From NCBI GenBank assembly GCA_019308995.1, contig JAFDHD010000002.1:2946-66945 (forward strand): DNA of 64,000 bases. Direction: 5' to 3'. The notes under the pieces were generated by a model, which was not told where the DNA came from, searched no databases, and saw nothing but the letters and a program-made list of their open reading frames with translations. A program made the position numbers and the translations under genes. Below are positions 27,449 to 30,471 of this stretch, in pieces. Positions within the stretch are counted from its first letter, which is position 1. Each line of letters opens with the position of its first letter. The stretch is from Deltaproteobacteria bacterium. GTDB lineage: Bacteria; Desulfobacterota; Desulfarculia; Adiutricales; JAFDHD01.

Positions 27449-28852
27449 ATGAGTGAGAAAAATATTGTTTATCCCTATGTGCCGAACTCGGTGAAGGAGA
27501 TTAAGGCCGAGATGCTCAGGGAAGTGGGCTTGGACGATGTGAAGGCCCTTTTCGCCGACATTCCCGAGCATTTGCAATTTCAGGGTAAACTAAACCTGCC
27601 GCAGCCGATCCTGGATGAGTATTCGATTAAAAGACATATGGAGGGGCTGCTCAACAAGAATAAAAACTGTTCAGAATATTTGAATTTTTTAGGCGCCGGG
27701 TGTGCGCAGCATTTCGTGCCCGCGGTTTGCGATGAGATCAACGGCCGGGGGGAATTTTTGACCGCCTACTCGGGCGGCACCTATGCCGACCATGGGAAGT
27801 ATCAGGCCCTCTTCGAATACGCCAGCCTGATGGCCGAACTGCTGGACATGGATCATTTGAGCTCGGTTCTTTATGATGGCGCGCAGGCCGCGGCGACATC
27901 CTTACGCATGGCCTCGAGAATGACCGGCCGGAATGAGGTCCTTCTCTCCCGGTCCATGAACCCCGAGGTTTTGATGGTCGTGCAGAACTACCTCCAAGGC
28001 ATTCGCGAGCCGCTGCTTAATATCAAGATGATTGATTTTGACCCTCAAACCGGGCTGCTTGATATGAACGACTTGGAATCGAAAATCTCCCCGGAAACCG
28101 CGGCCGTGTTCCTTGAAAATCCAAACTATTTCGGTTTGATCGAAGCCGACGCCGAAGCAATCGCCAAGATCGCCCGTGAAAGCGGAGCCGAGTTCATCGT
28201 GTATACCGACCCGATCTCTCTGGGGGCGATCGCTCCTCCGGCTCAGTACGGCGCGACCATTGCCTGCGGCGACATCCACAGCCTTGGGATGCACATGCAA
28301 AGCGGCGGCGGGCAGGCCGGGTTCATCGCGGTACACGACGATATGAGGTACATCGCAGAATTTAAGGACCTGATGTTCGGCCTGACCAAAACCTCTGAGG
28401 AGGGCGAGTATGGATTCGGATATGTCATGCCTCATCTGTCTTCCTACGCCACTCGCGAACAAGGCAAGGAGTACACGGGTACCAACTGCGCCCTCTGGGC
28501 CATTACCGCCGCAGTGTATCTTTCCCTAATGGGCCCCAAGGGGATGACGGAGATTGGCCAGGCAATCATGCAGAAAGCCCAATATGCAGCTAAAGGAATC
28601 TCAGAACTCAAGGGGATCGAGCTGGCTTTCAGCTCACCCTTTTTTAAAGAATTCTTGGTCAAATTCGATGGAACCGGAAAAACCGTGAGCCAGATTAACA
28701 AGGCCCTGCTTAAGTTAAGGATTTTCGGCGGGAAAGACATCTCTGGTGAATTCCCTGAACTCGGCCAGTGTGCTCTTTTCTGCGTCACAGAGATCATGAC
28801 CAGGGAAGATATTGATAGTCTGGTTACTGCCTTGGAAGGCGCGGTGAACTAG
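27449..28852 (+). CDS. Divergent glycine-dehydrogenase subunit-1-like protein (GcvPA paralog)
   Basis: Collinear with the GcvPA at 33358, but hallmark strings are replaced: AYSGGTYADHGKYQ versus [13 protein letters not shown], and REQGKEYTGTNCALWA versus [17 protein letters not shown]. Confidence 0.75.
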   Translation: MSEKNIVYPYVPNSVKEIKAEMLREVGLDDVKALFADIPEHLQFQGKLNLPQPILDEYSIKRHMEGLLNKNKNCSEYLNFLGAGCAQHFVPAVCDEINGRGEFLTAYSGGTYADHGKYQALFEYASLMAELLDMDHLSSVLYDGAQAAATSLRMASRMTGRNEVLLSRSMNPEVLMVVQNYLQGIREPLLNIKMIDFDPQTGLLDMNDLESKISPETAAVFLENPNYFGLIEADAEAIAKIARESGAEFIVYTDPISLGAIAPPAQYGATIACGDIHSLGMHMQSGGGQAGFIAVHDDMRYIAEFKDLMFGLTKTSEEGEYGFGYVMPHLSSYATREQGKEYTGTNCALWAITAAVYLSLMGPKGMTEIGQAIMQKAQYAAKGISELKGIELAFSSPFFKEFLVKFDGTGKTVSQINKALLKLRIFGGKDISGEFPELGQCALFCVTEIMTREDIDSLVTALEGAVN

Positions 28853-28911
28853 TCGGATTGTAAGGCGCGAAAGTTTTGAAAGACGGCTTGAAATAAAAAA
28901 GGAGAAAAAAG

Positions 28912-30471
28912 ATGCCGCGAGATAAAGAGACCCTGCTGCGGAAGTTCCATCAAGCTAAATGGGATGAACAGATCATCTTCGAGATGAGCGTCCCTGGCGA
29001 AAGAGGGATCCTGGTGCCGCAGGCCGGGGAGGAGATTAGCGCCATCATTGGCGATGGGCTGTCCGTAATTCCCGACCAGCTCAGAAGAAAGACCCCGCCC
29101 GCGCTGCCCGAGGTGGCCCAGGCGCGCGTCCTGAGGCATTTTATGCGGCTCTCTCAGGAAACCATGGGAGCGGACGTAAATATTGATATTGGAGAAGGAA
29201 CCTGCACCATGAAGTACAGCCCCAAGGTTCAGGAGCACCTGGCGGCCAGACATCCGGGTATGACCGCCATCCATCCTTTGCAGGACGACGAGACGATGCA
29301 GGGCATCCTGGAGATTTACTACAGGCTGGAACAGTTTCTAAAAGAGATTTCCGGGCTTGACTACTTCTGCTTTCAGCCCGGCGGAGGTAGCCAGGCCGTC
29401 TTTCTGAACGCATGCCTTGTCAGAGCATATCACGCCGACCGGGGCGATCACGAGCGCGACGAGATCATTACCACCATCTTTTCGCATCCGGTAAACGCCG
29501 CCGCGCCGGCCACGGCCGGGTACAAGGTCATCACCCTCATGCCGGACGAGAACGGGTACCCGACCCTGGAGGCCTTGAAAGAGGCCCTGTCTGAACGGAC
29601 GGCCGGGATTTTTATCACCAACCCTGAAGATACCGGCATTTACAATCCTGAGATTGCTGAATTCGTTAAGGCGGCCCACGATGCTGGCGCCTTGTGTTCC
29701 TACGATCAGGCCAATGCCAACGGCTTACTCGGCGTTACCCGGGCCAGGGAAGCCGGATTCGATCTTTGTCATTTTAACCTTCACAAAACCTTCTCCGCCC
29801 CACACGGCTGCATGGGTCCGGCCATGGGCGCTGTCGGTGTGAGGTCGGAGCTGGCCGGGTTTCTGCCTGTGCCTCGCGTCGAGTTTGACGGCCAGGGATA
29901 TTACTTGGACTATAATCGCCCCCAAAGCATCGGGCGGGTGAGGTCCTTCTTTGGCAACACCCCGCTCGCCTTGAAGACCTACACCTGGATCATGCAGCAT
30001 GGGGCTGAGGGCTTACGGGAGGTCGCCGAGTGCGCTGTGCTGAATAACAACTACATGGATAAGAAGATCAGGGAAATCCCGGGGGTGGTTGTTTATTACG
30101 CCAAAGATGAACGCAGACTGGAACAGGTTCGATACTCCTGGGAAAAACTGAAAGAAGACACCGGTGTGGACACCGAAGACGTTGAACGCCGGATGGCTGA
30201 TTACGGGTTGCAGCATTATTTCACCAGCCATCACCCGCAGGTGGTGCCAGAACCGTTTACGCCGGAACCCTGCGATTCCTATTCAAAGGATGACATTGAC
30301 GAGTTTGTAGCGGTGCTGCGTCAAATTTCCAGGGAGGCTTATGAAGAGCCGGACTTGGTCAAGAACGCGCCGCACCATTCCACTATCCATATGGTTCAGA
30401 ATCCGCTTATCTTTGAACTGGAAAAAATCGCCACCACCTGGCGGCAGGCAAAAAAGAAAGGACTGGTCTAG
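28912..30471 (+). CDS. Divergent glycine-dehydrogenase subunit-2-like protein (GcvPB paralog, PLP-lysine context retained)
   Basis: HFNLHKTFSAPHGCMGPAMGAVGV versus the canonical [39 protein letters not shown]. Confidence 0.75.
   Translation: MPRDKETLLRKFHQAKWDEQIIFEMSVPGERGILVPQAGEEISAIIGDGLSVIPDQLRRKTPPALPEVAQARVLRHFMRLSQETMGADVNIDIGEGTCTMKYSPKVQEHLAARHPGMTAIHPLQDDETMQGILEIYYRLEQFLKEISGLDYFCFQPGGGSQAVFLNACLVRAYHADRGDHERDEIITTIFSHPVNAAAPATAGYKVITLMPDENGYPTLEALKEALSERTAGIFITNPEDTGIYNPEIAEFVKAAHDAGALCSYDQANANGLLGVTRAREAGFDLCHFNLHKTFSAPHGCMGPAMGAVGVRSELAGFLPVPRVEFDGQGYYLDYNRPQSIGRVRSFFGNTPLALKTYTWIMQHGAEGLREVAECAVLNNNYMDKKIREIPGVVVYYAKDERRLEQVRYSWEKLKEDTGVDTEDVERRMADYGLQHYFTSHHPQVVPEPFTPEPCDSYSKDDIDEFVAVLRQISREAYEEPDLVKNAPHHSTIHMVQNPLIFELEKIATTWRQAKKKGLV

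Follow-up and report, generated by a model that had tools for sequence, protein, structure and literature searches.

Why would a genome keep a second, strongly divergent P-protein next to a complete glycine-cleavage operon? The question is raised by a 64,000-nucleotide stretch of a Deltaproteobacteria genome (contig JAFDHD010000002.1, positions 2,946 to 66,945 of the forward strand), hereafter the window, in which two genes resembling gcvPA and gcvPB, the alpha and beta subunits of the pyridoxal phosphate (PLP)-dependent P-protein, lie in front of gcvT, gcvH, a canonical gcvPA/gcvPB pair and lpd. We refer to the upstream genes as PAL (PA-like subunit, 467 amino acids (aa); 27449..28852, + strand) and PBL (PB-like catalytic subunit, 519 aa, PLP lysine K292; 28912..30471, +), and to the kinase-like gene that follows them as NKL (372 aa; 30517..31635, +).

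The comparisons below show that PAL and PBL make up a PLP enzyme of alpha/beta type whose branch of the P-protein family is old, widely transferred and separate from the canonical one. We are highly confident of this branch, of the kept cofactor residues, of the rebuilt pocket and entrance, and of a three-gene module that includes NKL. The wider explanation that we favour, a distinct PLP enzyme that would act on a compound other than glycine and would work as a module with the kinase-like protein, we judge to stand at about even chances.

The upstream pair belongs to a separate branch of the P-protein family

PAL and PBL are collinear with the downstream pair, with which they share 35% and 32% amino acid identity, respectively. 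PAL scored 456 bits against the NCBIfam GcvPA model (cut-off 364; E = 1e-136) and PBL 549 bits against GcvPB (cut-off 441; E = 1e-164). Such homology is well outside what chance would give. Both subunits exceed these equivalog cut-offs, yet they score well under the downstream pair (586 and 696 bits). A previous sequence-only reading of this DNA had described the upstream pair as collinear and as retaining the HKTF context of the PLP lysine, and alignment and translations bear this out; the peptide strings that it quoted are all present in the translations, the upstream pair carrying AYSGGTYADHGKYQ, REQGKEYTGTNCALWA and NLHKTFSAPHGCMGPAMGA.

The family to which the pair belongs is large. In a database clustered at 90% identity, at least 120 clusters from several phyla were 65–74% identical to PAL, among them Deltaproteobacteria, Abyssubacteria, Vecturithrix, Acidobacteriota and others, and all clusters with a name were labelled GcvPA. 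The search with NKL likewise returned at least 120 clusters at 65–74% identity from several phyla. More distant relatives of PBL (44–59% identity) occur in several cultured organisms, and cultured carriers of the family include [Clostridium] ultunense DSM 10521 and related Tissierellia, Bacillus sp. F19, Rhodococcus jostii RHA1, R. qingshengii, Sphingomonas psychrotolerans, Paracoccus aminophilus, Gemmobacter fulvus and the haloarchaeon Natronosalvus halobius. In R. jostii RHA1 the genes lie on pRHL1 at about 436.8–440.9 kb and in P. aminophilus on pAMI4; CS98 is a carrier strain of R. qingshengii. Overall, the branch was found in Deltaproteobacteria, Tissierellia, Planctomycetes-like genomes, Rhodococcus, Alphaproteobacteria, Bacillus and haloarchaea, with 65–77% amino acid identity across phyla. 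A tblastn search of plasmids separated the two kinds of protein by a clear gap (434–629 bits for paralogs, at most 335 bits for canonical GcvPB).

We then placed PBL in a tree of PB-type sequences built by neighbour joining (200 bootstraps), in which full-length GcvP proteins were represented by their C-terminal halves. The PB-like paralogs formed a monophyletic clade (200/200 bootstraps) that lies outside canonical P-protein diversity, as pairwise identities also indicate: paralogs are a median 35% identical to canonical proteins (range 27–46%), and canonical proteins, full-length GcvP included, are a median 49% identical to one another. Within the paralog clade, subclade I contains the window's type (164/200 bootstraps) and subclade II contains aerobes and haloarchaea (199/200 bootstraps). 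The pairwise ratio of nonsynonymous to synonymous substitution rates (dN/dS), computed for unsaturated pairs, was 0.04–0.11 for both PAL and PBL, and their open reading frames (ORFs) were intact at all loci examined. The paralog family is under strong purifying selection. Functional divergence rather than recent duplication had been the sequence-only reading's view of this pair, and the monophyletic family, its family-wide sequence signatures and its dN/dS values uphold it: the pair sits in a separate clade, not inside ordinary GcvP diversity, and its dN/dS is not that of a decaying duplicate.

Cofactor residues are kept and the pocket is rebuilt

Alignment of the two clades shows that the predicted cofactor machinery is kept. 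Neither clade departs from K292, D265 or H192, the PLP-binding residues of the beta subunit, and both retain GxCTMKY and HKTF. In enzymes of this type the lysine forms the Schiff base, the aspartate contacts the pyridine nitrogen and the histidine stacks on the cofactor.

The same alignment shows that every segment predicted to shape the glycine pocket and its entrance in true P-proteins is rebuilt in the paralog. In the alpha subunit, the canonical TAYTPYQxExSQGTLQ has become LTAYxx-xx(Y/S)xDHG(K/R)xQ, with a one-residue deletion in TPYQ and replacement of S by D114, Q by H115 and T by K/R117; GGPxLG has become GGGxxGF, and (R/K)REKATSNIC(T/S)N has become (T/S)RExxK(E/D)(Y/F/W)xG(T/H). In the beta subunit, AHGTNPA is replaced by (S/T)HPxxAA (H-P for H-G-T-N-P), TNPNTLG by xNP(E/D)D(T/M)G, CMHEFV by R402-L-E404-x-x-R407, where E404 takes the place of the His of MHE, and HPPT(V/I)YFP by xxxW(T/M)SH440(H/E)P. 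The paralog beta subunits have thereby gained R402, R407 and H440, and D240 of PBL is a further family-wide change. TPYQxExSQG is invariant in P-proteins from bacteria to humans and is replaced in every member of the paralog family. The motifs that are invariant at the pocket and entrance of true P-proteins (TPYQxExSQG, REQHI(R/K), ..FP) are all replaced by residues that are themselves conserved within the paralog clade.

The roles assigned to pocket and entrance residues come from secondary citations. PMC10185560 describes the SNIC cysteine as an active-site residue (E. coli C335, Synechocystis C353) whose mutation lowers activity more than six-fold, and assigns R321, R326 and R327 of E. coli, within the same motif, to a basic patch at the active-site entrance. 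R373 and K376 of human GLDC, also in this motif, are modelled as salt-bridge partners of H-protein (PMC7259800). At the SNIC motif of the paralog, the Cys is a Gly, the first Arg/Lys is a Ser/Thr and the Lys position is not conserved. As a lead only, Tyr95, Thr96 and Thr320 of the T. thermophilus alpha subunit, which we take to contact the carboxylate of a substrate analogue, align to AYTPYQ and SNITT, both of them rebuilt segments.

Together, kept PLP chemistry and replaced pocket and entrance motifs agree with the earlier proposal of a P-protein-derived PLP enzyme, and on these residues and its position in the tree we read the upstream pair as something other than a redundant glycine decarboxylase. 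A disulfide between Cys300 and Cys454 of PBL was also considered as a substitute for lipoamide and rejected: both cysteines are absent in subclade II, and Cys300 is additionally missing from one member of subclade I.

A kinase-like gene is the third member of the module

Adjacency was counted over 24 informative loci. NKL adjoins the pair in 21 of these, in two gene orders that follow the subclades. The order PAL-PBL-NKL is that of subclade I (the window, L001, L003–L005, L007–L012, L034, L035 and L048–L050), and NKL-PAL-PBL that of subclade II (L051, L055, L056, L059 and, judged by coordinates, R. jostii RHA1). NKL also diverges in step with the pair (40–72% identity, dN/dS 0.05–0.18). These data show that PAL, PBL and NKL form a three-gene module rather than a two-gene one.

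NKL is currently annotated as a 'predicted polyphosphate/ATP-dependent NAD kinase' of the COG3199 group. In Pfam it matches NAD_kinase (PF01513; 76 bits), NAD_kinase_C (PF20143; 61 bits) and DAGK_cat (30 bits), and its GGDGT motif (G115-G116-D117-G118-T119) is invariant in 26 sequences. The C-terminal half is predicted to be alpha/beta.

Homologs of NKL were also seen in other settings. In Pseudoalteromonas piscicida (L052, 8421–10113) one overlaps the end of epmC, which encodes the EF-P hydroxylase, and in Peptoclostridium acidaminophilum (L053, 9001–11077) a COG3199 homolog is translationally coupled to, and overlaps, the gene for a HisC/CobD-family PLP enzyme. Characterized members of the HisC/CobD family act on phosphorylated substrates.

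The module lies in variable catabolic neighbourhoods

Glycine-cleavage genes stand beside the module in just two of the informative loci, the window and L048; in the other 22, gcvT and gcvH are absent within ±7–10 kb. The order in L048 is AsnC, gcvT (422 aa), gcvH, gcvPA, gcvPB, an lpd-like gene, lplA/B and lipA, followed by the module. Other neighbours were counted by type over 18 non-redundant loci. Genes for short-chain dehydrogenases/reductases (SDRs) occur in 8 of the 18, two of these proteins passing the 'UcpA' equivalog model, which is uninformative, and Zn- or Fe-dependent alcohol dehydrogenases recur. Deacylases/hydrolases of the M20 family (ArgE/DapE-type) are found in five loci and acyl-CoA synthetases in three; Gemmobacter has a primary-amine oxidase and L005 a class-III aminotransferase. 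We considered and rejected a Tdh identity for the recurrent Zn-dependent alcohol dehydrogenase (L005), whose best model, L-threonine 3-dehydrogenase, gives 257 bits against a cut-off of 380.

Regulators near the module vary (LysR, TetR, ANTAR/AmiC-like, sigma-54 activators, AraC), as do transporters from locus to locus (Liv-type ABC, SSF, APC, MFS, Dpp). In aerobes the module was found on catabolic plasmids with SDR, M20 and acyl-CoA synthetase genes and without gcvT or gcvH. Neighbourhoods of this kind are typical of a mobile catabolic module that handles an amino compound taken up from outside, not of a core one-carbon enzyme.

The sequence-only reading had suggested that the upstream pair may act on a compound brought in by the adjacent MFS transporter and feed the T, H and L components of the glycine-cleavage system. 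As a general rule neither link is supported, given the two loci with adjoining glycine-cleavage genes and the change of transporter family among genomes. Of the neighbourhood that it had singled out, the kinase-like gene proved conserved and the MFS transporter did not. It had overlooked the kinase-like gene as the true conserved partner of the pair, and the SDR/alcohol dehydrogenases and M20 deacylases as the commonest other neighbours.

Rfam searches of six related loci found a single ligand or RNA element, the PYLIS element for mtbB in L050. In this 6.1-Mb genome mtbB (dimethylamine methyltransferase; 8552–9961) is split into 355 + 113 aa by an in-frame stop, carries PYLIS_2 at 9617–9716 (65 bits), is preceded by a gene for a B12-binding protein and lies directly upstream of the PAL-PBL-NKL module, whose genes are closest to those of L005, a Desulfobacterales metagenome-assembled genome. 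Because mtbB combines an in-frame stop with a PYLIS_2 element, the predicted gene implies that this organism decodes pyrrolysine.

Organization of the locus in the window

The gene order given by the sequence-only reading (MFS, PA-like, PB-like, kinase-like, gcvT, gcvH, gcvPA, gcvPB, ACT, lpd, all on the + strand) is correct. The MFS transporter (25856..27145, +; Pfam MFS_1, 151 bits) is of the oxalate/formate and monocarboxylate type; its highest-scoring NCBIfam model, the L-lactate MFS transporter (201 bits), falls short of the cut-off of 320. A 303-bp spacer (27146..27448, +), AT-rich when its sequence is read, separates this gene from PAL. The MFS gene is probably a separate transcription unit, and the spacer is presumed to be the promoter region of PAL. 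We scanned the spacer for promoter elements and found no sigma-54 consensus and no strong sigma-70 consensus, and an Rfam search of the spacer and window returned nothing at the gathering threshold or at E ≤ 1, and hence no known riboswitch.

Downstream of NKL, gcvT (31662..32942, +) encodes an aminomethyltransferase of 426 aa. This protein is atypical: only the N-terminal GCV_T domain is recognized in Pfam, its NCBIfam GcvT score is 213 against a cut-off of 300, and solved T-proteins align to it only at about residues 6–300. Its ortholog in the gcv cluster of L048 is 54% identical and 422 aa long. Next come gcvH, the lipoyl carrier with its VESTK lipoyl-lysine motif (about 32953..33357, +; Pfam GCV_H 138 bits, NCBIfam GcvH 165 bits, cut-off 117), and the canonical pair, gcvPA (33358..34689, +; 586 bits, cut-off 364), with all canonical motifs, and gcvPB (34686..36143, +; 696 bits, cut-off 441), also with canonical motifs. 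The ATG of gcvPB at 34686 overlaps the gcvPA stop codon by 4 nt, and the probable start of gcvH is the ATG at 32953; the starts in the ORF list, a GTG at 34626 for gcvPB (the longest ORF) and a TTG at 32872 for gcvH, are probably too far upstream. The block continues with a double-ACT-domain protein that resembles GcvR (36171..36695, +; Pfam ACT_6 and ACT; NCBIfam GcvR 57 bits, below the cut-off of 267) and closes with lpd, the dihydrolipoyl dehydrogenase or L-protein (36768..38225, +; NCBIfam TIGR01350, 501 bits, cut-off 409). Since the intergenic gaps from PAL through lpd are 0–72 nt and we found no convincing terminator in them, these genes are likely to form one operon. The window sequence was present in DNA metagenomes only, from marine sediment and subsurface samples, and no RNA runs covering it were found.

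Elsewhere in the window, a minus-strand SBP_bac_5 gene (23092–24936, −) just upstream of the MFS gene is flanked by a CoA_binding_2 ORF (22050–22598) and by a 177-aa ORF that has no Pfam match (25270–25803); the two flanking ORFs may belong to a gene set resembling an ADP-forming acyl-CoA synthetase. Pfam gave no match at E ≤ 1e-5 for two co-directional ORFs of 461 and 317 aa (16951–19286) that lie upstream of priA. The window also contains ilvB-ilvN-ilvC (39206–42423), nrdD/nrdG (43286–46488) and, at 48083–52977 (−), an enoyl-CoA hydratase and a further MFS transporter grouped with a second TPP-dependent enzyme of 623 aa.

Possible functions of the module

What, then, might the three proteins do together? 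In the explanation that we favour, the substrate of the module would be an imported amino compound, not glycine but larger, and polar or charged. The residues gained in the pocket segments, D114, H115 and K/R117 (alpha) and R402, E404, R407 and H440 (beta), together with the loss of bulky Tyr and Pro residues, suggest this larger, more polar substrate. PLP-dependent decarboxylation would be the likeliest chemistry, NKL would act on the substrate or the product, and SDR/alcohol dehydrogenases, M20 deacylases and acyl-CoA synthetases would handle the steps before or after. The carbanion could either be passed to a lipoyl-H protein or simply be protonated.

Our tentative preference is for the second of these fates, a lipoyl-independent reaction in which NKL would phosphorylate the substrate or product, by the logic of PduX and CobD. 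This version would account for the co-conservation of NKL, for the HisC/CobD-family parallel and for the amine oxidase or aminotransferase sometimes found nearby. We place it slightly ahead of the lipoyl-dependent version, at somewhat less than even chances.

A number of observations weigh against this explanation. The pair lacks an adjacent NKL at three loci, L002, Bacillus sp. F19 and Natronosalvus, the last with an NKL gene 56 kb from the pair on the same plasmid. The kinase assignment of NKL is weak: no NCBIfam family (E ≤ 0.001) and no PDB sequence (E ≤ 0.01) matches it, and a Foldseek search with its AlphaFold2 model (pLDDT 80) matched the N-terminal domain only, to DgkB-type kinases at TM-scores of 0.23–0.30, with no NAD kinase among the matches at E ≤ 1e-3. 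COG3199 proteins about 50% identical to NKL occur without P-like genes, and because such free-standing homologs exist, NKL may have a general rather than a pathway-specific role. The weak assignment and the free-standing homologs tell in particular against the lipoyl-independent version. The neighbourhoods are heterogeneous and indicate no single substrate, and the operon-like fusion of the module with gcvTHP and lpd in the window remains compatible with lipoyl dependence or with a role related to glycine.

A lipoyl-dependent second cleavage system is the strongest alternative, and on its own we consider it less likely than not. A non-glycine amino acid would be decarboxylated and would pass as a 1-aminoalkyl group to the housekeeping H-protein's lipoyl arm; its release would give an aldehyde and NH3, the L-protein would reoxidize H, an SDR or alcohol dehydrogenase would take the aldehyde, and NKL would be accessory. 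The paralog retains the full P-protein architecture and the cofactor residues. In the window, the module and gcvT, gcvH and lpd make up a single operon-like block, and in L048 the genes gcvTHPAPB, lpd, lplA/B and lipA stand immediately ahead of the module. Alcohol dehydrogenases and SDRs, the commonest neighbours, fit an aldehyde product. Against these stand the rarity of adjoining H, L or lipoylation genes (2/24 loci) and a co-conserved NKL left without a role. The equivalents of human GLDC R373 and K376, the modelled H-protein partners (PMC7259800), are not conserved in the paralog, and neither is that of E. coli R326, assigned to the basic entrance patch (PMC10185560).

Whichever of the two fates applies, the result would be an unrecognized system, either a second lipoyl-H/L-dependent cleavage system for a substrate other than glycine or a kinase-coupled PLP decarboxylation on a P-protein scaffold. 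That such a system exists is a possibility to which we give somewhat less than even weight, and we view with the same reserve the idea that it has spread horizontally across bacteria and haloarchaea, hidden under the GcvPA/GcvPB name.

Less probable by a good way is a PLP chemistry other than decarboxylation, such as an elimination, a retro-aldol or retro-Claisen cleavage or a transamination-type reaction, on the product of an SDR or Zn-dependent alcohol dehydrogenase. By analogy with the Tdh/Kbl couple, this could yield glycine for an adjacent cleavage system. An SDR or Tdh-like dehydrogenase is often adjacent, that of L005 having L-threonine 3-dehydrogenase as its best model (257 bits), and glycine-cleavage genes adjoin the module in two genomes; direct support is nil, however, the L005 enzyme scores below the Tdh cut-off (380), and no SDR or alcohol dehydrogenase lies beside the module in the window.

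We regard a glycine-specific isozyme with other kinetics, regulation or direction, for example in the reductive glycine pathway, as more doubtful again. Passing the GcvPA and GcvPB equivalog cut-offs with both subunits and the predicted co-transcription with T, H and L in the window would suit such an enzyme. The replacement in every family member of motifs that are invariant in P-proteins argues against it, as do a clade outside canonical diversity and the presence of the module on catabolic plasmids of aerobes, in SDR, M20 and acyl-CoA synthetase company and with no gcvT or gcvH. A decaying or non-functional duplicate of gcvPA/gcvPB, which the low identity to the neighbouring canonical pair might bring to mind, can be dismissed with hardly a doubt in view of ORFs intact everywhere examined, dN/dS of 0.04–0.11, 65–77% identity across phyla and clade-specific residues that are themselves invariant.

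Comparison with known systems

Literature searches on the paralog and on its COG3199 partner found no description and no characterized member, in agreement with the earlier reading, which knew of no characterized function for such a paralog. To our knowledge, P-protein chemistry has so far been known for glycine only. That a conserved branch has rebuilt its pocket and holds on to a kinase-like partner that looks obligate suggests new biochemistry of PLP, possibly also of lipoyl, and a catabolic route not yet described.

The family also bears on annotation. PGAP and NCBI models name the paralog's relatives gcvPA and gcvPB, and because the family passes the equivalog cut-offs under these names, genome-based calls that a glycine cleavage system is present or expressed can be wrong, calls of the reductive glycine pathway among them. 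A role for the glycine cleavage system has been proposed in syntrophic acetate oxidation (PMC7024554). Studies based on 'gcvP', such as those of syntrophic acetate oxidizers (PMC7024554), may be counting the paralog, which Tissierellia including C. ultunense carry.

The closest known system is the split P-protein (EC 1.4.4.2; Thermus thermophilus 1WYT/1WYU/1WYV). The paralog has the same two-gene alpha/beta architecture, collinear over its full length, and shares the PLP Lys/Asp/His, GxCTMKY, HKTF and the GcvP2_C domain; it matches chain A of 1WYT at E = 1.7e-61 and chain B at E = 8e-83. In contrast to the split P-protein, from which it differs at all but 32–35% of positions, it forms a separate clade (200/200), has replaced the pocket and entrance motifs, including the SNIC Cys, and is partnered with a kinase-like gene, not gcvT/gcvH, usually in catabolic islands. 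On fold, cofactor residues and HMM score it would count as a split P-protein, and on pocket motifs and phylogeny it does not.

NKL itself shares the Pfam NAD_kinase N- and C-terminal domains, DAGK_cat and GGDGT with NadK/PpnK and the DgkB-type lipid kinases, and differs from NadK/PpnK in matching no NCBIfam NAD-kinase model or PDB sequence. Pairing of a kinase gene with a PLP decarboxylase gene, with phosphate as the handle, has a parallel in PduX and CobD, the L-threonine kinase and the PLP-dependent L-threonine-O-3-phosphate decarboxylase. The parallel would be one of mechanism only; PduX is a GHMP kinase and CobD has the class I/II aminotransferase fold.

A further lead is AcoX, which may be a relative of NKL. 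AcoX of the acoXABC acetoin clusters is a 'predicted NAD kinase' of unknown function (PMC9676059, PMC10107126), and there too a NAD-kinase-family protein is kept beside a lipoamide-using, cofactor-dependent cleavage enzyme (PMC10107126, PMC9676059). A difference is that none of 13 plasmid tblastn matches to NKL lay in an aco cluster. Besides acoX, the module would offer another setting for establishing the role of this group of NAD-kinase-like proteins.

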